NCBI GenBank assembly: GCA_026770705.1
Contig: JANJGN010000035.1
Span: 7,130,001-7,194,000, forward strand
Source of the DNA: Isurus oxyrinchus
Taxonomy: Eukaryota
Length of the DNA: 64,000 nucleotides
Direction: 5' to 3'
Shown here one piece after another: positions 30,720-64,000 of this stretch. The notes under the pieces were generated by a model, which was not told where the DNA came from, did no database searches, and saw nothing but the letters and a program-made list of their open reading frames with translations. Numbering within the stretch: position 1 is the first letter of the stretch; every line of letters starts with the position of its first letter. Both the position numbers and the translations under genes were made by a program.

Positions 30720-31325
30720 ATCGAATCCCTACTTACAAACGCCCAACCACTCCACCCGACCAAGCAACCACACACATTGACCACTGTGAAAATCCGTCGC
30801 AAAACTAACTGCCAACAATCTCACTACACCCCCAACAACACAGCAACCGTCTCACGCATGAACACATTTACATACAAAGTACTCGCATATCAATTGACAC
30901 ATACAAAAATTTCATCACTAAATCACACACAGTTACTCACCTATGCGCCTGTCCACACTGTCACCTATCTACCAACCATCACACAGACTTGCAACCGTTC
31001 ACTCGTTTACCCACACCCAGACTCTTCAAATCACTCACTTACTCAATCATTCAGAAAATCAGCCATTACGCTCACACTCACTCACCTACGCACTCACTCA
31101 AGTACACACTCAGCTGCCCATTTTACAAAAAAATGGATCAACCCATGCACCCAACAGGTCAGTCACCCACCCATCCATGCAACCATCCGCCCACCAACTC
31201 TTTCAATACCTCACGCACTAGCCAATGAGAAAAACACTCATTCACTCACTGATCCAATTACTCAATCATTCACTTAGCCACTCACCCACTGACGTGCGTT
31301 CCCTCCGATCACCTCACTCAGTCAT
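30720..31325 (+). repeat. Degenerate (CACT/CACC)n low-complexity tract
   Basis: Recurrent cactcactca and cacccac units, which explain the overlapping H/T/P/S-rich ORFs. Confidence 0.75.
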
Positions 31326-33582: not shown

Positions 33583-34577
33583 AATGCAAAAAAAAACTGT
33601 GGATGCTGGAAATCCAAAAAAAGAAAACAAAAACAAAAACACCTGGAAAAACTCAGCATGTTTGACAGCATCTGTGAAGAGGAACACAGTTAACCTTTCG
33701 AGTCCGCATGATTCTCCTCAGTGTCCAAGAGCCCAGCAATCCTTTCAAGTGAAAGAGCATTTTACCTGCTTCCCTCAATTCAGTCTATTGCATTCGCTGC
33801 TCCGAATGCACTTCCCTCTACACTGAGGAGATCAAACGCAGACTCACCGACCACTTTTTGGAACACTTTCAGCCTGTCCGCAATCATGGCCTATGCCTCC
33901 CTGTCGCTGGCCATTTGAACACACCATGCTGCTCTCATTTCCACATGTCCGTCTTTGGACTACTGCATTGATGCAAAGAAGCTCAACGCAAATTGGAGCA
34001 ACAGCACCTCATCTTCTGGGTAAGCACTTTAAAGCCTTGCGGACTGAATATTGAGTTCACCAATTTTCGGTCCTGAAATCTCTCTTCCATCCCCACCCTT
34101 TTTCCGGTCCACCTTTTTTCCCAATAATTTATATAGATTTTTATTTTCCCACCTATTTAAATGATTTTTAAATGTGTTTCATTCCCTTGTTTTATCTCTA
34201 TGTTTTAGTGTATTTCGATCCCTTACCCGCACCACACCCCCCCCCCCCCCCCCCCCACCCCCGCCATCCCCAGTTCCACTCCGGCTGTCTGCACCTTGCT
34301 CGTCCTGCTTTCTAACCTTAGTTTCAGCTATTTTCACATTCCTTAGATAATATCACCACCTTCCTCACCTCTTTTCCCTTTTGGCTATGACATCTTTTTG
34401 TTATCTCCACCTATCACTGGCCCTCTATCCAGCTGTACCAGTTCCATTCCTCCCCCAGCACCCTCCCTCCTTAAACCAGCTTATATTTCTCCTTTTTTCT
34501 ATTTTTGCTTAGTTCTACTGAAGAGTCAAAGTGACTCGACACGTTAACTGTTTTCCTTTCCGCAGATGCTGTCAGAG
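33583..34577 (+). mobile_element. 5'-truncated Penelope-like element with inverted pLTR, GIY-YIG endonuclease remnant and 3' pLTR
   Basis: 33583-33721 is an inverted copy of the terminal repeat at about 34510-34577. QSFQVKEHFTC / VYCIRCSEC..YTEEIKRRL.DHFLEH is a GIY-YIG remnant. Confidence 0.85.
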
Positions 34578-45929: not shown

Positions 45930-46680
45930 CCAACCTGTTTGCTGACTAACTGTATATATTCAGATTACCACTTATGTGTTTGCAGAACCAATTTCTAGGA
46001 GACAGCACCTCTCTTATCTCGAACCCACCCAGGATTACAGCTGGGCATACAGTTTTCCTCAGACTGTTGTTCCCGCCGCATCCTGGGACCCATACTGAGT
46101 GTCTTACCCCACTAGATGTAAAACGTGGATCTTTCTCCAGCCTCACCAAATCACCCTATTGCATTAAGTACTTTTCCACAGTTTCCTTTCATTCTTCACC
46201 ACCTCGACAGCTTAACACGGAGCCTTTCCTTTCCTTCAGTTTAGGAACATCACCCCTAAGGACTTTGTGATTCCAACGTCATTCATATATCCTCCTCCTC
46301 ATCCCGTACTTCTGATCAAACATTTCTTCTTACTCAGTTCCTGCCGTGTATTGAACAAACATTCTGACCTCCCCAAATCTGATACTAAAAGTTATGTTAT
46401 CAGCAAATTACTGAGTATCTCACTCTTAGGCCCTCAACTGAATGAAATTCGTGTTCTGCACGCTGCTGAACTACTCCCATGTCACGCTCATCTCCCTTCT
46501 CACTTCTTTGGGTATTAGTCATGCCTGCGTTCAATGGATAATTTCAACCACTCCACCATTCTCCCATAACTCACCCCACCCTCTGACCTCTTAGATGCTT
46601 TGGTATTTTCACTGAGAACAGTTGGTGTGTCCTCTGGCACATTAATTTATTTCCTCATCTCACACACTCCAAACATTTCC
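45930..46680 (+). mobile_element. Possible L2-type LINE endonuclease remnant
   Basis: Pyrimidine-rich, with ctaggagacagcacctct..gctgggcatacagttttcc (L.GD...PPGY.F-like), atatatcctcctcct (YRPP-like) and gataatttcaac (GDFN-like). Confidence 0.35.
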
Positions 46681-46947
46681 TCCTGAGCTTGCTGCAATCC
46701 GTTCCCTCTGGTCCAACCACAACTCTATTATCATATTTGCCAATAAGGGTCTTGTTGTTTGTGGCATACTGACGTGAACCTTGCAAAGGCTGAGTGAAAC
46801 GTCTCAGATACTTCCTTGCAAAACGCTCTCACAGCCAGCCCCCAGCTCGCACCCCTCCGAAATGCGACCCCACCACCGAACACCATGATATTATTTCCTG
46901 GCCTGTCACTGGCCTCTCCTACTCTGGAAATCTTCCCTCCACAGCTT

Positions 46948-49900: not shown

Positions 49901-51249
49901 ATGTAGTATTTGGGCATTTGGAAAGTCAAATGCAATCCATCAAAGCCAGTATGGTTTAATGAAGAGTAAATCGCGTTTGATAGTTGTCTGTCTTGTTGCA
50001 GTTATTTGAAGATGTGGCAGGCGTAGTGGATAATTTGGTTCCTGTACATGTTGTATATTTGGATTTCCAGAAGGACTTTTATAAGCTGCCGCACAAAAGA
50101 TTAATACAGAGGATTGGTTCACTCAGAGTTAGGGTAATATTTCAGCTTAGATAGCCAGCAGAAATCAGAGAAGTGGGTTAAATGGGTATCTTTAAGCATG
50201 GCAAGCTGTAACTAGAGGAGTGGCATCGGTTTGCCCCTTGGGCCACAACTATTTACAATCTATATGAATGACTTGAATTCAGAGATCTATGGCACTATGT
50301 ACACATTTCCAGATAACGCCAAATTTGGTGGGCAAGTTAGCTCAAATGGAGAAATAATAAAATTTTCAAATGGATATGGACAGTTTCGGTGAATGGACCA
50401 AAATTTGGCAGATTAATTTTAACGTGGATAAGAGTAGGTTATCAATTTTGGACAGAACAATTATAACGCGTTCAACTGTTCTGTTGAAGGGACATGAGGA
50501 CTCAAAACATCAACTATTTTCTTTTCGCCGATGCTGCCAGACCTGCTGAGTGTTTCCAGGTAATTCTGTTTTTGTTTTCAACTATAAGGCGGGTTATTGA
50601 AATGTAGATAACCGTCAGAATGCTTCTGTGCAGAGGGATCTGGGTCTCCTCTTGCATTAATCGCTGACAGATAGTAGGCAGGTACAGCATTTAATAAGGG
50701 AGCCACATTGAATTTTGGTCTTTAATGCTAATGCAATAGATTCGAAAAGTAAGGAAGTCCTGTTGAAACATTACTGGATGTTGGTGAGGCCGCACCTGGA
50801 GCAATCTGCTTCGTTTTGGTCCCCTATCTGAATGATTTATTTGCATTGGAGGCGGTTCAGGGGCGGTTTACTAGGTTGATTCCGGAGATGCAGGGCGGGT
50901 CCTATGAGGAGATATAGAGCAGTTTAGGCCTATAATCGCTAGAGTTTGGAAGGATGAGATAGGTGTAATTGAGGTGTATTAGATGTTAAAGTGGATAGGC
51001 AAAGTGGAAGTGGAGCGGATGTTTATCCTTTTCTGACATTCTAGAAGATGTTGCCATATGTATGCGAGGGCGCTGAACAAAGTTAAGGTAGGGATAGACA
51101 GAATTTTAAATCGTGATGGGTTGAAAGATTAGAGGGATTTTTCGGAAAATTGGAGTTGATGCAGAAATTATATTCGCCATGATCGTACTGATTCGGGGGG
51201 CAGGCCCGCAATGCTGAATTGCCTACACCTGCTCCTCGTTCTTATGTTC
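46948..51249 (+). mobile_element. Near full-length CR1 LINE (5' UTR, ORF1 zinc finger/zipper plus SGNH esterase, ORF2 APE-RT, cttatgtt tail), decayed
   Basis: ORF1: C..CSKC..RVDELEYE, RNVVVFGDS and FHSDGLHFNGAG. ORF2: YDFVVIAETWL..FQKDRQEEKEGNV, KSPGSNCLHPSVLKE, YLDFQKDF and LVRPHLE. Ends cctgctcctcgttcttatgttc. Confidence 0.9.
50471..50578 (+). mobile_element. Short pLTR/hammerhead-like element inserted in the CR1 RT region
   Basis: gttctgttgaagggacatgaggactcaaaacatcaact..gtaattctgtttttgtttt flanked by caattataacgcg (50458-50470) and caactataaggcg (50579-50591). Confidence 0.8.
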
Positions 51250-53499
51250 CCTTAACCTCATTGTTTCGTAACCTCCGACTGTGCACAGCTATTTACTTCC
51301 CAAACCTGCAAACAAGGCAGCCCCAGCAGACACATTATGTCGACCTGTGTTTGCCCAACAGAACTTTGTTGTTTGTAATTTGGGTCCTTTCTCTCTCCCC
51401 TTGCCCCGTGTCTCCCTACCAATGTTCACGACTGCTGTAATGCCCTGCGACTATCGACAGTTTCCAGTTCCATGACCCTAACCAGCTTCTGAATGCTATG
51501 GACTTCCTATCCATCTAGAATCTCATGCCTCACCATATTCCTGTGAGCTATCTACACTTATTACTTGAACAGAAGCCTAATAAATTCCCAACCACCTCCA
51601 GTCTCTCCAACTGACTGAATTTGTAGTCTCACACAACAAAATCTCCTTTAACTAGACACATTGTTCCAAACAAAATGTGCAGCTTTGGGTGCATGGACCC
51701 CAGGTACATGTTTTTTTCATTATGCGGTGCATGGAAAATTCATTGATCCAGTTCTACTCAGGGTCCTTATTCGGTACATCGATGGCTGTATCAGTTCTAT
51801 GTTCTCTTCTGGACTGGGAATCATTTGTCGATTTTGCTTCCAATTTAGACACCCCCATAAGCATATTGCGAATTTTCCGACGCTCCCTTCCGGTCTTTGA
51901 CTGCTTTGCCTGCACTTCCGTTCATAGGCTGTCTACCAATAATCACAACAACGCGCCAACTCCTCCAGCTACCTCCACTACAGCTCCATACACGCTGCTT
52001 CCCGTAAGGACTCCAGCCCATTCTTTCAGTTTCTCCATCTCCATTGTGTTTGTTTCAAATATGCCACTTACCAAACCAGCGCTTCTGAAATATCTTCATT
52101 TTTCCTGCACAGTTGGCTCGCCACAAAATTGTCGACGTGGACTTCAACCGTTTCTGACCCATCTCCCATGTGTCTGCCCTCACCCCATCCAATTCCTTCC
52201 AGAAGCATGATAGGATCACCCTTGGCCTCACTTTTCATGCCACCAGCCTCCACATTCAATGCGGCTGCCTCCACAATTTGATGAAACACCATAATGTTGC
52301 CGTGACCAAACTCATCTTCCCCTCACTCTGCCCCTTACTCCCTTTAAGTATTCGGGAGGGACGGTTCCCTCCGTGGCAGCCTGGTGCACTCTCCGATTAA
52401 CGCTTAGTATGAATTCCCACGGCATATTTCCATGCAATCGCAGAAGTTTCATCGCCTGCCACATTACGTCCTCCCTCCTCAACATCCAAGGCCCCAAACA
52501 TTAATTTCAGGTGGAGCAGTGATGCAATTCCACCGGTCTAAATTTGGTCTTCTCTATGCAATGATCGTAATTATGCTTCCCCGGTAATTGTGTGACTAAA
52601 TGCAGATTTGCTGACTGCTTCGTGGAACACCATGACTCAGGCTGCAAGCATTACCTTTGCCTTTTTTTCCTTCCCATTTCAACACCCAATCTTTCTGTCA
52701 TACCCACGCACCCGCCCTTGGTTTGCTGCAATGTGCCAGTAATGCCCACAGCAAACTAGTGGAACAGCACCTCAGCTTAGAAGGAGCCAGGTTACAGCAT
52801 TTAGCGTTTCCAATCGTGTTCAATAACTTCAAACAATGAAACATTTTCTTCTTGTTTACCTTCTTCCCCTTTAATAAATGTTTAGATTGTTTAAAATTAT
52901 TTGTACTTATTTATGTATTGATTTATTATCTCCCTCATTTCCTCAACGACCACCTTCACCCAACGCATGATTGTGCATACCCTTGTTCTGCTATTTACTC
53001 ATTCTGCTATTTTATACTTGTGTCACTGTTAGCCTTTCTTCCATCTTCACCACTGTCATTGACACTCCTTTTGCCTTGGCCCACGATATCATTGTCAATA
53101 TGTATTTAAAGCCCACTTATCCCTCAACATATCTATTGCTCTAACTACTCCACTGCTGTAATGCAGTAAGAATTCCATCGAATTACTGCCTCTCTTGAAG
53201 CTCTCAAGAGGAGGCACGCGTGCTCGAAACATTAGTTGTGTTTCCCTCTCCACATATTTTGTCAGACCTGCTGGGTTTTTTCCCCCAGTTTCTGTTTGTA
53301 TCTCAGATACCCAGCATGCACAACAGTTGTATTTCTTCGACGAATTCAAATATTGAATAATTAGCACCATATCATAAAATTAATGAATTATAAGTACATT
53401 GTTCTCCGAGAAGGGCAGAGGATTTTTACAACTGGATTGGGGATGTGGATAAGTAAAAAGATGGATTTTGCATCGTCCATTCCATTGTTGGTTTATTTC

Positions 53500-54522
53500 T
53501 CAACAGCAGATCCCAAACAAGAGGTTTATAACCACCCCCTACCCTCACGGGGCGGCATTCTGTAGGGATCATTCCCTCGGGGACACCCAAGTGCACTCCT
53601 CCATCAACCCCTACACCTCAACACCCACCTTTGTCACCTCCCCATGCCCACGCAAAAGATGCAACACCTGCCCCTTTCACTTCCTCTCTCCGCATCGTCC
53701 AACGGCCAAACAGTCCTTTCAAGTGAAGCAGCATTTCACTTGCATTTCCCCAAACTTAGTCTACTACATTCGTTGCCCCCAATGCGGTCTCCTGCAGAGA
53801 CCAAATGTAAACTTGGCGACCACTTTGCAGAACACCTGTGGTCTGCCCGCAAGCATAACGCAAACCGCCCTGTTGCTTACCATTTTAACACTCCACCCTG
53901 CTCTCTTGCCCACATGTCTGTCCTTTCCTTGCTGCCTTGTTCCAGTGAAGACATCGCAAATTGGAGGAACAGAGCCTCTTCTTCTGACTAGGCACTTTAT
54001 AGCCTTCTGGACTGAATATTGAATTCAACTACTTTAGATCTTGACCTCCTCCCTCCATCTCCATGCGCTTTCTCTTTCTTCCCTCTTCCTTTAGTTTTTT
54101 TTCCCCTAATAATTTATATAGATTTTCTTTTCCCACCTATTTCCATTATTTTTAAATCTTTTATGCCCCCACCCCCAATAGAGCTATACCTTGAGTGCCC
54201 TGCCATCCATTCGTAATGAGTATCTTCGTTTAGATAATATCACCAACTTCAAGAACCTTTGTGTTCTTTTGTTCTTTTGTCTGTGACACCTTTTGATTAT
54301 CTGCTCCTATCACTGTCTGCTTGTCCCTACAACTACAAGAGCCCCCTCCACTTCTCTCCCCGCAACCAAACTCCCACCCCCAACTTTAACCAGCTTATAT
54401 TTCACCCCTCTCCTTGGATTCACCCAATTTTGTGGAAGGGTCCTGAGGATCGGAAATGTGAACTTCTTTCTTGTGCGCCGATGCTGCCAGACCTGCTGAG
54501 TTTTTCCAGATAATTCTGTTCT
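53500..54522 (+). mobile_element. 5'-truncated Penelope-like element (GIY-YIG plus 3' pLTR)
   Basis: PCPRKRCNTCPF..KQSFQVKQHFTCISPNLVYYIRCPQCGLL / ETKCKLGDHFAEHL..PVAYHFN, with a terminal repeat at 54427-54522. Confidence 0.9.
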
Positions 54523-54859
54523 TGAAGTGGTTTGTAAATATTTGTGAGTCAACAAGGTTTCATGGAAAAGAGCAAAATAAATCATTCGAGAAATGATTAT
54601 AAGCTGATTCTCATCATGTAATTATAGTTATATGTTATGATGCCTGGACTTACTTCCAGATGTTATGTCCTTCTGTAGGGATTTGATTGTTTTTCAAACT
54701 GAAAAAAAAAAACATAAAAAACAAACAATTCAGTATGGAATCTACTTTTCTATCCATTATGTGGAGCGTGAGCATTAGTTTCAAAAATAAATGCGTAACA
54801 TATTTAATTCCCAATTACCTTTCAGTCAAATATTACGAACGTCTCTGGCTATGCGAATA

Positions 54860-55960: not shown

Positions 55961-57437
55961 GTAAATTATGCCTGTCGCTTTTCGTGGCAGCCCTTCCATC
56001 AGTCAGTCAGGATTAGCTCACTGTACTGTTGCTCATGGCAGATTGAATCATATAATATTGCTGATGCATAATGAGTGCAAATCTACGGCTGCTGATTGTG
56101 CACAATGCCTCATCGATATTTGTTATTGAGATGCTAAATGTTATCAGTCTGTTACGTTTGGCACATTATAACTTCTGAAACAGAATGCAGCATGTCCACA
56201 GTGCATGGGCGGGCCTATTTTTCCACAAGCTGGTTTATTCCTGCTACACTTACTTTCATGGGGAAAAAGAAAATGTTACTTTTTAGCTTGATTTCTTATA
56301 AAAAAAAATGTAGAACATCATGTCACAGCTGCTGTGTTCTCAGCAATTGTTTTGAGCCAATGTTCGCATATATGTCTTTCCTGCTCGGCATAATCGTACG
56401 ACATTGTGCTATTGAACTTCTCTTGACGTTGAATTTCCCAACCGAATTATATTCTGCGGTGTTGTTCCCATGAGTGTTTCTTCCAAGCGATGTACAATTT
56501 GGAGGACAACTTATTCTTTAGACGAAGATTTAAAAGTAATTTTAATCAAAGACTGAAGCGAAATGCTTTTGCAGTAAGCAGGAACAGGAGCAACTGGTTG
56601 AATAGCTTCCATCTAAGCTGTAAACATTACATCACTCTCTGGAATCCTTGCCAGTATTTGCCCGAGTTCCGGAGACAATGTCGGGGAAATAAAGTCATGC
56701 TTCCTTCCATCTCGATATTGCATTGCCACCAGGTCTGTTGGCTAAGTCAGACCCGTAAGTACAATATATCCAATAATGTTCAAAGAGCATTCTTCGAAAA
56801 GTTTTATCTTTTTTTCTCAGTGAGAATGAGTATCGGCCTGCCCTTTGTTAATTGCTTTGGAAATCTCCATTCGCTTTTTTTTGGCATAAGTACCCAGCTG
56901 CTAAAGAAGAGGAATTTTCTTGGTTGTCAGCGTGCTCATCAGCGTAGTATGTTTCCTCATTCGTGCTAGACTCCTGCCCCGTGCGAATTTGGTTTCAATT
57001 TTGTGCGCCACCGAATTGATTTCTGGGTTACTTCTAACCGCACTAAAGACTCAAGGCAAATTATTTATAATCTGCAATAACATTTGTATCAGACCGGCTG
57101 CGGAGAGCAGTTTTAATTCACTGAAGACCATTCATTCCCAGATGATTAACTTATTTGATTTAACGTATTACTACAGTTTTTTTTTTTGTGACAACTGATC
57201 ACATCTGCATTTTTGTGTACCAACTCATAGCGTGCAAACATTATATCAGACCTCTTGATTTATAGGGCTGTCGCATTACCGTTACGCTGCTATTTGTCAT
57301 TGGCTTGATTATGATATTTCATGCATAATAAACCATTAAGTTTCCGATAGAAATACCAGAATATTTGACATGCAAACAAATATTTAAGTGCTGTTAAAAC
57401 GGCTCATTGTGTGCTTTTAGTTTAGAACGTAGCTCAC

Positions 57438-59644: not shown

Positions 59645-61349
59645 CTGAGTATTTTATAATTTGGGTAGCAAGAGTTCAAGCTGACGGATGCCTGTTGCAT
59701 TCATGAGTGCTTCTTCCAAGCGATATTCAATACCACAGGCAGCGAGGTTCAGCTGTTCAATTCGTTCTAAGTTCATCAGTACGCTTGACAGCACAACCCA
59801 GTCAGAATAGTTAAGAGTATACTCTGTCAATTGTACAGCCTTATTTGGTGTTAATTCGGCTTTCACCAGTTTTGGGTTGCCGAATTAAAAGTAAAATAAT
59901 GCAACATGTCCAGGAGGCTTCTGTGGGTTTCCCAGTCTTCTAAATTCCGAATATGACGTTCGACACCTTCATTGAGCCAATCAGATACGCACGAAGGTGT
60001 CCCAGCGTTAACCTCGGCCATTTTCCACTCAAGCTGATTTGTTGAAATTCCTGATGAGAGGCCAACAATGAAAGGTGACATTATCTTAGAATCTGTCGTT
60101 CTTGCTCCAGTCACTGAGCGATCGCATCAATTCTTTTTCTTGTGCTACCTGAATTTTCATAATTGCAGCTATAAAGTTTTATAAAATGGAGAGAGTGAAT
60201 GTGTACACAAAAGTTCCCCGACATTTGCCTTGAATGTCTTTCATTAAAAACAGCGATAACACTGGAAATTCTAGTTTGTGGTGAAAGAGTTGTGACCTCT
60301 GAAAAACAAAGCTTTGGTTACAAATTCCCCTGAAGGCCATGTCACCCAATGTCAGCAAGACATCGGTGGCCCATTGCTCTAAAAGACTGTTGTAGTAAGC
60401 ACGGAACACCTGTGTGCTGGTCATGCGGAACATAGACCTACTCTTTGTCCGTTGTGTCAAGTGTGGCGCTAATAATGAAGAGAGGACAGCACAGTACTAT
60501 GGGTTACAGCACATGCTGTTCAGCATTTTATTTGGTCACCTCTGCAGCGAACTGCTCACCTCGATATCTTTGGTGAAAGTATGTTTTCAATTGTTCAGCG
60601 TTAAATCCCAGGAATGCGACTCTTAGATTTTTTTTTCTTGCTTTTTCAAGTAAGTCCAGTTTCCACGGCCTTGTTGTCAGTACTGAATAGACCCTTACTA
60701 ACGCTCCTTGCATTAGGCAGTGCACGATCTCTGATACCTCACAACACCACTCGCGATCTAAACAATGATTTTGCTGATCGCCGCTTCTGTGGACATCGCT
60801 GAATTCGATTGTTTTCTCAAAGAGGTCAAAATCTTCAAATACAAATACTAATTTGGACAGTTCCTGCCACAGATGACCCAGAACATTTTCTAAATATGGG
60901 TATGAGTCCCGAATCAAGCTAGTTAGTTTGTTCTGGCCGTTGTTAAATTTAATTGTGAAATCTTTAAATGGAACACCAATGTGAACTGTTCGTAGATTTT
61001 CCCCCATTGCCAATTCACGGATCATCTTGTCTATCAGGTTACTTTTCCCAATGGTTCTGTGGAAGGTTCATGAGGACACGAAACGTCAACTCTGTTCTTC
61101 TCCACTGATGCTGCCAGATCTCTTGAGCTTTTCCAGGTAATTATGTTTTTATTTTACTTTTCCCAATGCCTACCACGCCAATTACCACCGTGACTTCAGT
61201 CCGCCTTCCTTTGCAGCAAACTAAAATCATCATTTTTGTGTAATTATTATTCAGGAGAGATGTCTTGCGGAATACTACTCCCCCAGTGATATTGGCTGAA
61301 AGCCTTTCGGACTGTTCTCGAACATTTTCTCTGTGCTTAAATTATATCT
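59645..61349 (-). pseudogene. NLR pseudogene 2, NACHT plus first LRR exon
   Basis: Acceptor ttttatttgtaag. FKHRENVREQSERL, Walker A GVVGIGKS (interrupted), LVFVFEDFDLF, VLTTRP, LGFNAEQ, LLTLGDMAFRG, VYTFT, PFIVGLSS, LLDMLHYF, LNLAACGI. Donor ctcag|gtaa. Confidence 0.92.
61054..61153 (+). mobile_element. 100-bp pLTR/hammerhead-like element inserted in the Walker A codons of NLR pseudogene 2
   Basis: Perfect 15-bp target-site duplication ttacttttcccaatg at 61039-61053 and 61154-61168. Confidence 0.92.
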
Positions 61350-64000
61350 CTTACAAATAAAAATAAACATAGTTAGCACAACAATCCTGAGACAGATGTT
61401 TTTATATCTTAGATTAGCGTATCGAATGGAAAATTAATGCTGAAGGGGAAGGAAAAAAATCCTTAAATGAATTTTGTAAGATGACTCAATGCTCTCTTCT
61501 GATGCACTTTGTGCTGAGACTTTACAGGAAAAATATATTGTTTTGACGTTATTAGGTGTGGTAACACATTTCAGACATTCCAGAAATGGGATTGAATTCT
61601 GTGAAGCTGGATAAAGAATACTGGATATATTGCATAGTGACGATGCGCTGCCTCTAGCCAAGATTTGAACATAAGGATGGACATCAATAAAAAAAATACG
61701 TTTGAAATTCCCGTTGCAACTTTATACTAGTTGCCATATATTGTTCTGCTCAATGAAATAACGATTACAGACTTGGAGTGACAGAATAAGTCACGAACGG
61801 CATATTCTGTCTCAAGGCGTTATAACTCGTTTCTAGGATCCTCATATCCATTCAAGTTAATATTTTGACAAAGGTCAAAATCTGACACAAACAGGCAACT
61901 TGCCTTTAACCAGGAGCATGAATATAGGCAAGGTGGAGAAATTTTCAAAAGCAATTTGAAAAAAATATATTTTTCAGTGCAGATGAAATTCTAATGTACT
62001 TTGAAAAAAATAGAATCGTTGTAACAGTTCGTAAATCGCAAAATGCGTTATTTTCAGTTTAAATTGCGGAGGCCCTGCGTTCAGAGTGAGAAATCTTTCG
62101 GGAAGGAAAGGAGTAAAGTCCTGCAGTGGTCTTGGCTAGGTAATTGCTCTCTGAATTTTTTTGCATGCACAGCGAAACAGGAAGACAGCACAGCATGGTA
62201 CTGTTAAGAAACAAAGAAACACAAAATACCACATTGCATTTTTCAATTGAAAACGTGCTAGAAAAAATCGAAGCGAGTGTTTGTGCAGGCTGCAGAATTA
62301 TCGATCCAAAATAATCATACTTTCATGAAACGCTTTTATAAATAATGATATTTTTGGAACTAATTTTGTGTACCAAACTGCTTAACGTGGTTTCATGTAA
62401 ACTTAGCTTTTTCACATAAATTTCATCATTGATTGCAAGACAAAATTCCGCATTTGTTGCTATAAACATAATTGACAGGGCGACACAAATGAATTTGGTA
62501 TGTTCGAAGATTGCAATGTTGGAAAAAATGTTCCAATCATGTTTTGGGACAATTGGAACAGAAAATTCTGCTTCTGCTCCGTTAGGGAAGAATGTGAAAT
62601 GTGTGACTGGTGCACCGCAAATGCGTGCCTGAGCATAGCTTTTGAGTATGAATCCAATTATTAGGCAGCTCAAGAACTTGTCAGCTAATTGCAATAAACG
62701 CGAGGATTGGCATCAGCCTGACATTAGCTTTTGCCTTTTATAATAAAATGATGTCGGTATAGTTTTATTTTTCAAGCCGATAGATTTATAACCTTGCAAA
62801 CAGTATCTCAAGTAGAACCCAAAATATAAACAAAATATTTTTTCCTGAAAGGTGCCTTACTAAAAATACCAGAACTAAATGGCATCTATTTCTGCATCAA
62901 AGAATGCTGAAAAATTGGCTAAGTTTTATTAAACATTCAAAGACGACATTTTCTGCCACACAGAGCGCTTGCACTCACTCTCCAGGTGGAAATATGCAGA
63001 ACAATTCTGAAAATGCCAAACACTCTGTAAATCATCAACTGAGCACTGATGCTTGTACATCTTTTATCGTTTGTTTTCACTTAGTTTATCAAAGTGCTAT
63101 AATTCTTCTGCATGTATTTGCAGTTTAGAAATGTACCATAAAACTCCAAAAAATCACTACCATTCATGTTATTTATTAGTCATAATTCTGCTCTATTATA
63201 AAAAAAATATGCAATTGAGAAATTTGAAGCAGTGACTCTGACCATTTCATTAAAGTAGCTGCTTACCGAAGAAAAATTCATTGGACACTTGTCTTTAATA
63301 GGCTTTGCGATTTCTGGAGCCAGTGTATTCCATGCCTATTCAGTTTGGAATGTTGAACCTGTTAACACAATTTTCCGTATATTTTTGTTAAATACGAAGC
63401 AATACATTGTTCATAATATTTCAATGTATGTTATGTCATGTCAGTCGTCACTTTTCTCGCCTTTTTCCGACAAAATCGTTTTCCATTCTCGGTTGTGAAT
63501 CAGCATTTTAGCAAATGTGATCCACATCGTCCCTTCTCCCTTAGCCTTTGCTTTCAGAATCATCTTGAAAAGCATTTTGGCTGCAGAATTTCTGCAATAT
63601 TTTCCAGCCATTTAACAGATTTTCAAAAAAAAAAACATGCTTATAGTATACTAGACACTGTTTGATTGAAATATTGAAAGAGCGGACACACTTGACGAAA
63701 AAAAATCATTTTCCTCGGTATTCCCCCCTCTTCTGTTCATTACCCATTAGCAAAATATATTTTTAATTGGTCAGAAAACATGCACTTATGCAAATGTCCT
63801 ATTATTCTCAGTGTTGCACGTCATTCGCATATTTATTCAATTTACATTTCCATGCTCTTTATGTACATTTTCTGATAGGGGAGGTACTGAATTTGTGATA
63901 AAATGGCAGTTACTAGGCCAAAACTGTTATTATCCAAAATCGGCATTTTATGGCACGTTAAAAGCAAACTGCATTATTTTGCTGACAACATGTGCGGTAG

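Follow-up and report, generated by a model that had tools for sequence, protein, structure and literature searches.

The window, a 64-kb stretch of DNA (contig C35, positions 7130001-7194000, of a 4.98-Gb genome), contains a broken NLR exon and, within it, a 100-nt insert between two copies of a short direct repeat (Table 1). Eight paralogous exons were found on the same contig, two of them open (L004 and L009) and six broken. In L004, Pfam detected the NACHT domain above the cutoff (E 8e-32) and the HD2 and WH domains just below it. The window exon aligned with L004 over residues 22-612, with 275 of 526 residues identical, and no paralog closer than L002 was found in the assembly. Same-species contigs (X1 and X2) were approximately 90% like the window exon over 60500-61500, closer than any match in the assembly, and judged by their sequence would be either an unassembled paralog or a divergent haplotype.

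Table 1. Features of the NLR exon and of the insert (positions within the window)
Feature	Position	Strand	Remark
Broken NACHT-WH-HD2 exon, NLR pseudogene in a tandem cluster	59660..61395	-	From paralog alignment
Stop at the codon of L004 residue 546, indel nearby	59883..59890	-	Common to the empty-site paralogs L002 and L003
+1 frameshift	61006..61010	-	Likely younger than the insertion; lacking in X7 record 25 (insert-bearing, organism B)
Left target-site duplication copy	61039..61053	+	Probably 61040-61053 (14 nt) when inserted
Solo 3' end unit of an EN+ Penelope-like element (pLTR part, tail-less)	61054..61153	+	Antisense to the NLR gene
Minimal type I hammerhead-like motif	61054..61091	+	Read by eye against the minimal hammerhead description (PMC4209133)
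Splice-donor-like CAG/GTAATT, unit position +84	61134..61142	+	Predicted 5'-UTR intron of the element
Right target-site duplication copy	61154..61168	+	First T probably element-derived
Walker A GVVGIGKS	61156..61179	-	Whole; insert-derived stop at 61141-61143, 5 codons later

The repeat, TTACTTTTCCCAATG, is a 15-mer that occurs only at 61039 and 61154 in the 64-kb window, cannot be extended, and leaves exactly 100 nt between its copies. Exact 15-mer repeats spaced 40-300 nt apart numbered only two in the window; the second pair (31039-31053 and 31258-31272) flanks a CA-rich tract. Frameshift-aware alignment to the open-frame paralog L004 placed, unprompted, a 115-nt insertion at 61053. In the closest paralogs, L002 and L003, both sides aligned by blastn with a 15-nt overlap and the insert was absent, which establishes both as empty sites; MAFFT misaligned the empty site at the junction, and blastn and the frameshift aligner were used for these sites. 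These findings bear out the claim of an earlier, sequence-only reading that a 100-nt insert is flanked by a direct repeat, and the search for empty sites that it had proposed returned the two empty paralogs as well as contigs of a second species (organism B) carrying the insert at three distinct copies. The perfect 15-bp target-site duplication that it had described holds as an exact 15-nt repeat today, but the duplication made at insertion was probably 14 nt, since L002, L003, L004 and one of the insert-bearing copies from organism B all have G at 61039; the fifteenth match would probably be a later change together with the element's next T.

Both junctions were bridged with 0 differences by same-species contigs (X2 records 10 and 12), from a sample that may be the assembly source and would then be non-independent, and raw reads of a second individual covered the flanks at a depth of 1-3, too low to lend further support. 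In organism B, the left junction was bridged by X6 record 18 (15 differences in 170) and by X7 record 25 (18 in 180, reaching just 31 letters into the insert), and the right junction by contigs of X7 and of X14, three distinct ones from each, with approximately 90% identity. Contigs from two species across both junctions rule out an assembly artefact. That the insert might be an intron spliced out of a working gene has a negligible probability as well, because the 115-nt excess is in no register GT...AG on the gene's strand and the exon has approximately 10 further lesions.

The insert had been placed inside the P-loop, its removal restoring the Walker A. It does lie in the NACHT Walker A region, but GVVGIGKS is intact upstream and the insert follows it; in L002, L004 and L005, GKS is followed by Thr. 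Near the other end of the exon, a 27-nt in-frame insertion, absent from the compared paralogs, lies within a 39-nt stretch (59693-59731) that matches 56460-56498, 3.2 kb away, at 32 of 39 bases. By this match, the 27-nt insertion was possibly locally templated.

The element family of the insert

A 29-mer of the unit had 117,021 exact matches in the genome, against 0 for the control, giving at least 117,021 family ends. Upstream of the unit, long copies contain a pyrimidine-rich 3' UTR preceded by a GIY-YIG frame. Tandem full-length copies hold a single frame of 926 aa with a reverse transcriptase domain (RVT_1, E 7e-8) along with a C-terminal GIY-YIG domain (E 9e-4; 19.9 bits, under the curated cutoff of 22.6). 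The L200 frame contains VYCIRCSQCGLLYIGE, a CCHH motif as judged by the pair of cysteines that lie between its GIY and YIG, and, upstream of GIY-YIG, CPRKRCNTC, a linker of the CX2-5CxxC type (CX4CxxC). The family identity is thereby established: judged by these copies, the insert is the 3' end (pLTR) of an endonuclease-positive (EN+) Penelope-like family, as had been proposed when it was described as a Penelope-like terminal-repeat part with no coding sequence. Arrival by target-primed insertion is supported.

Positions in the unit are numbered from +1 at 61054, with 0 as the preceding base. The family was sampled twice. Sample 1, anchored at the 3' end, drew on 30 loci together with 40 ten-kilobase stretches around further matches, none of them beyond the first 2.9 Mb of contig C1, and yielded 125 arms. 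Sample 2 was anchored on +1 to +27 of the G variant to which the insert belongs and comprised 90 loci among 1,656 places, over 200 Mb of C1, with 92 arms; by design it omits arms truncated downstream of +1. The family has two 3' ends, one at +100 and one with a tail of approximately 35 nt. In sample 1, the tail was found on 64 of the 125 arms and a head-to-head arrangement in 58. The pLTRs are also arranged in 3.3-kb tandems of full-length elements, and target-site duplications vary, from 14-15 nt at the insert to 7-15 nt at other solos. Near-intact 3.3-kb tandem elements with open 926-aa frames were present at L200:1207-7900 and L201:4584-7912, and the parent family looks recently active.

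The first ATG of the long frame is at approximately +174 in family copies. In L200, the donor-like site at +84 and an AAG just ahead of this ATG would bound a candidate 88-nt 5'-UTR intron (+84 to +171), which would contain both reverse transcriptase start sites. AAGTTCTGT, near +194 in L200 (within +187 to +202), repeats the start of the unit.

The window holds other remains of Penelope-like elements. Two further solo units of the same family (389-484 and 50478-50581) both start at 0/+1 and have decayed or unclear duplications. Decayed or 5'-truncated bodies lie at 53553-54524, 33713-34576, 51352-52801 and 46006-46947, and an inverted arm at 33589-33711. Among the NACHT paralogs, L006 (C35:8148644-8152301) is broken near residue 537 by the same element family, likewise antisense, and L005 has a head-to-head pair of the family nearby.

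As read from its sequence, the unit begins inside helix I of a minimal-hammerhead-like motif. In the insert, the first base of the helix I 5' strand is absent and the 3' strand is at 61088-61091; the core is CTGTGGA (61057-61063), with U at the position that is canonically A6; and helix II (61065-61079) has two broken pairs and is followed by GAAACGTC at 61080-61087. The helix I and II architecture and the GAAA-palindrome-NUH arrangement were present in family copies by inspection and are damaged in the insert. The core was CTGTNGA, with U at A6, in 222 of 226 motifs from loci chosen for this family, which thus departs from the canonical CUGANGA. No hammerhead match was found in an Rfam scan of the window, and single-strand folds of three hammerhead stretches gave z-scores of -0.3 to +1.0, a low signal being expected for dimer-type motifs.

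Age of the insertion and state of the gene

Compared with the majority of 80 G-variant copies, the insert had 11 differences in 100 sites, and compared with its nearest copy 9 in 100; among 40 candidates scored out of 3,210, its best genome matches were 91% identical. The family majority was built from younger copies, which makes the divergence of 8-11% approximate. The gene branch since the split from L002 and L003 was 0.099 (0.078-0.119) substitutions per site. In organism B, the duplications were mutated at 61043, 61161 and 61164. These values and the bridging contigs establish an age bracket, and by sequence comparison the insert is old, not young, and predates both the species split and a local duplication. 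The proposed comparison of insert divergence with the lesions of the exon thus gave 9-11% against a branch of 0.099 with approximately 10 lesions. In contrast, late arrival had been read from the unmutated duplication, and this does not hold: the odds that a perfect 14-15-nt duplication survives 8-11% divergence are 3-10%, and the copy is lucky, not young. A perfect target duplication does not date an insertion; the insert itself is a clean shared-insertion marker for the two species.

Pairwise dN/dS among the window exon, L002 and L003 was 0.87-0.99, compared to 0.60 for the open pair L004-L009. On the window exon's own branch it was 0.77-0.87, with intervals (0.50-1.53) that include functional values; the per-branch values rest on three-point distances. 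In residues 150-612, approximately 10, 11 and 17 frameshifts and private stops fell on the three branches, whose lengths were 0.099, 0.114 and 0.138, respectively, so that the lesion load per branch length was similar in the window exon, L002 and L003. The codon-546 stop, which both empty-site paralogs have as well, the dN/dS near 1 and the lesion load favour a gene that died no later than the split and thus earlier than the insertion; the NLR gene was probably dead already when the insert came. Homoplasy of the codon-546 stop is possible, and L008, of another clade, has its own 1-nt deletion in the T run holding this stop. A protein cut at codon 546 would still hold the NACHT domain.

The same element, with the same origin, might itself have killed a still-working, possibly LRR-less, gene, although we consider this rather unlikely. 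Its divergence of 9-11% is about that of the full gene branch, which would put it among the earliest events there; it is older than the +1 frameshift, from which X7 record 25 is free; it introduces a stop 5 codons past the Walker A; and the branch has the lowest dN/dS of the trio. Against this stand the codon-546 stop common to both empty-site paralogs and the number of lesions per branch length, which equals that of the sisters. Moreover, an in-frame deletion of approximately 126 nt (42 codons) near 61216, upstream of the Walker A, and a -1 lesion at 60927 were also present in the insert-bearing contigs of organism B and are therefore equally old at this resolution. Of the two orders considered at the outset, inactivation by the insert or arrival after death, the latter is the likelier, on the grounds of the shared stop, dN/dS and lesions and not of the duplication.

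The common start of the short copies

The 125 arms of sample 1 comprised 38 that ran at least 398 nt upstream, 58 in head-to-head arrangement and 29 solos, a few of these solos being arms of larger units. Among the 87 truncated arms, 29 began in an 8-nt interval from -3 to +4 (binomial p 4e-29 against a uniform distribution, and p 8e-17 within -60 to +59, both overstated because both arms of inverted pairs were counted). Nine of the 29 solos started at -2 to +2, as did 5 of the 12 with a duplication of at least 8 nt. The arms of sample 2 divided into 35 long, 30 inverted and 27 solo ones; of the 27 solos, 13 started at -4 to +1, and 8 of these 13 had a duplication of at least 7 nt. A fixed 5' start common to many copies is thus established, in agreement with the suggestion that the unit is consistently truncated at this point. 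In open-licence papers, supplements aside, no description of a fixed start of solos was found, nor in those on shark Penelope elements and on insertions in shark NLR pseudogenes; it may be covered in Repbase or in subscription papers.

In 50 of 51 long copies, TATATTT was found 30-33 nt above +1, with a spacing of 30-31 in some subfamilies and 33 in others, clean solos being few. The start falls on TCAGTT or a close variant in long copies, which we take to resemble an initiator. In Penelope and Chlamys-3, transcription begins in the pLTR and there is a 5'-UTR intron, as far as the available texts describe them; the donor-like site at +84 fits this layout. From the TATA-like box, the initiator-like start and the published layout, the fixed start could be run-off at the RNA 5' end, with roughly even chances. 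The solos would then resemble strong-stop cDNAs, primed at the internal start of the upstream pLTR and run off at the capped mRNA 5' end, a reading that in our judgement stands in equal balance.

The 5' end may have been set otherwise, by a 3' splice site (AG/TTCTG) or by cDNA fold-back or stalling at the start of hammerhead helix I, but this seems the less probable course. For an acceptor, 48 of 51 long copies keep AG at 0/+1, preceded by a pyrimidine tract, and the end of a D. virilis intron maps to helix I in the portions of PMC4209133 available; the arms at the hot spot have no common upstream leader, however, and no donor-to-start junction was found in the 818,635 bases examined. CTTCAAG, which recurs at inverted junctions, was considered as a spliced leader and rejected, because solos do not have it and it equals the reverse complement of the pivot. 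Fold-back would agree with inverted pairs that pivot at the same position, often as near-perfect palindromes, and with a GAAC-N4-GTTC hairpin at the start in one subfamily, but the hot spot is also found in a subfamily that lacks the hairpin.

The solos gave no sign of a lineage of their own. No diagnostic site separated 20 solos from 92 long copies: the majorities were identical, with a smallest uncorrected p of 0.03 over 100 sites. At position 8, each of the three variants seen in the long copies also occurs among the solos, which are scattered among the variants of the autonomous copies. On this pattern, namely the lack of diagnostic sites and the presence of all position-8 variants, the solos are repeated by-products and not their own lineage, and the suggestion that the minimal unit retrotransposes as a lineage falls, the solos matching the long copies at every site. 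A self-propagating, non-autonomous 100-nt element (SINE-like or a retrozyme) is accordingly very improbable. Many solos of the same length do have their own duplications (5 in sample 1 and 8 in sample 2), and retrozymes derive from pLTRs according to the available part of bioRxiv 10.64898/2026.07.22.740005. However, besides the shared variants, the unit has no TATA-like box, nearly all motifs show U at A6 of the hammerhead core, and no tandem units each with a complete hammerhead were found in the window or among the 125 arms, where tandems were of full-length elements.

Taken together, the insert is fairly probably a lone, non-coding 3' end of a Penelope-like element, inserted long ago in an NLR gene that by then was likely dead, and likely a short by-product of the element's enzyme rather than a unit that copies itself. 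The GIY-YIG nuclease of the element would have nicked the target with a stagger of approximately 14 nt, and the reverse transcriptase would have started at the tail-less one of two internal sites (+100 versus +135). Approximately 100 nt would have been copied up to run-off at the RNA 5' end, at the initiator-like TCAGTT approximately 30 nt below the TATA-like box, and the cDNA would have been joined in a form lacking the second, inverted arm found in most of the family's short insertions. The gene would already have had a stop near the end of the exon, and decay since would have been neutral.

The locus itself is minor, a single end from a family with more than 100,000 of them, and the NLR genes clustered around it are decaying. 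The fixed start is a modest lead on an open question, the way in which Penelope-like elements come to form pLTRs, inverted arms and solos, and if this start is the RNA 5' end, the step at which pLTRs and solos form becomes directly testable. If the solos are indeed like strong-stop products, the transcription start would be recorded to the single base by thousands of stubs and by the point at which inverted pairs pivot, and the 5' pLTR copy, besides the 3' one, would act as a template.

Comparison with known systems

The comparisons below follow the available portions of the cited texts. Cartilaginous fish have lineage-specific NLR expansions with rapid turnover (PMC8455134), and the cluster in the window resembles these in its tandem NACHT genes, with six of eight paralogous exons and that of the window broken. 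The minimal hammerheads of metazoan Penelope-like elements are mostly single motifs, "probably related to truncated PLEs", and also occur as opposite-strand pairs 100-700 bp apart (PMC4209133). The insert's family shares with them a 4-bp helix I, a 5-bp helix II with an unpaired 5' base and palindromic 15.2-16.2. In contrast, its core is CUGUNGA, and in the insert two pairs of helix II are also broken and the first base of helix I is absent. Non-LTR retrozymes are, like the unit, short, non-coding, hammerhead-bearing, pLTR-related and dispersed as monomers, but they are defined by tandem repeats with complete hammerheads (bioRxiv 10.64898/2026.07.22.740005), whereas the unit occurs singly or head-to-head and forms no separate lineage.

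In PAc, a Poseidon element of Anolis carolinensis, two adjacent internal start sites of the reverse transcriptase define the tail in vitro, both target strands are primed, and the pLTR hammerhead is dispensable for insertion in vitro (PMC11167929). The two ends of the insert's family, at +100 and with the tail of approximately 35 nt, match these two start sites. The PAc ORF begins inside hammerhead stem II, unlike the first ATG at approximately +174 here, and no description of a fixed 5' end of short copies was found in the available portions of that text (PMC11167929). Penelope and Poseidon lack the CX2-5CxxC linker that the insert's family has. The linker is common to this family and Neptune/Nematis, a likeness that rests on the linker motif (PMC8557442).

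A further parallel is found in the EN+ Penelope-like elements of Adineta vaga, which have a pLTR, an inverted arm, an optional tail of 30-40 nt and solo pLTRs; pLTRs, solo pLTRs, head-to-head arms, tails and variable duplications have been described before (PMC3846280, PMC8557442). These elements share with the insert's family a reverse transcriptase with a C-terminal GIY-YIG, tandems, palindromic head-to-head junctions, a one-sided tail, variable target duplications and solo pLTRs, and their pLTRs contain TATA and initiator-like motifs (PMC3846280). Some solo pLTRs of A. vaga are without duplications and were ascribed to recombination or deletion (PMC3846280). In contrast, many solos of the insert's family are each flanked by a 7-15-nt duplication of their own and begin at a fixed position, which argues that these were inserted as solos.
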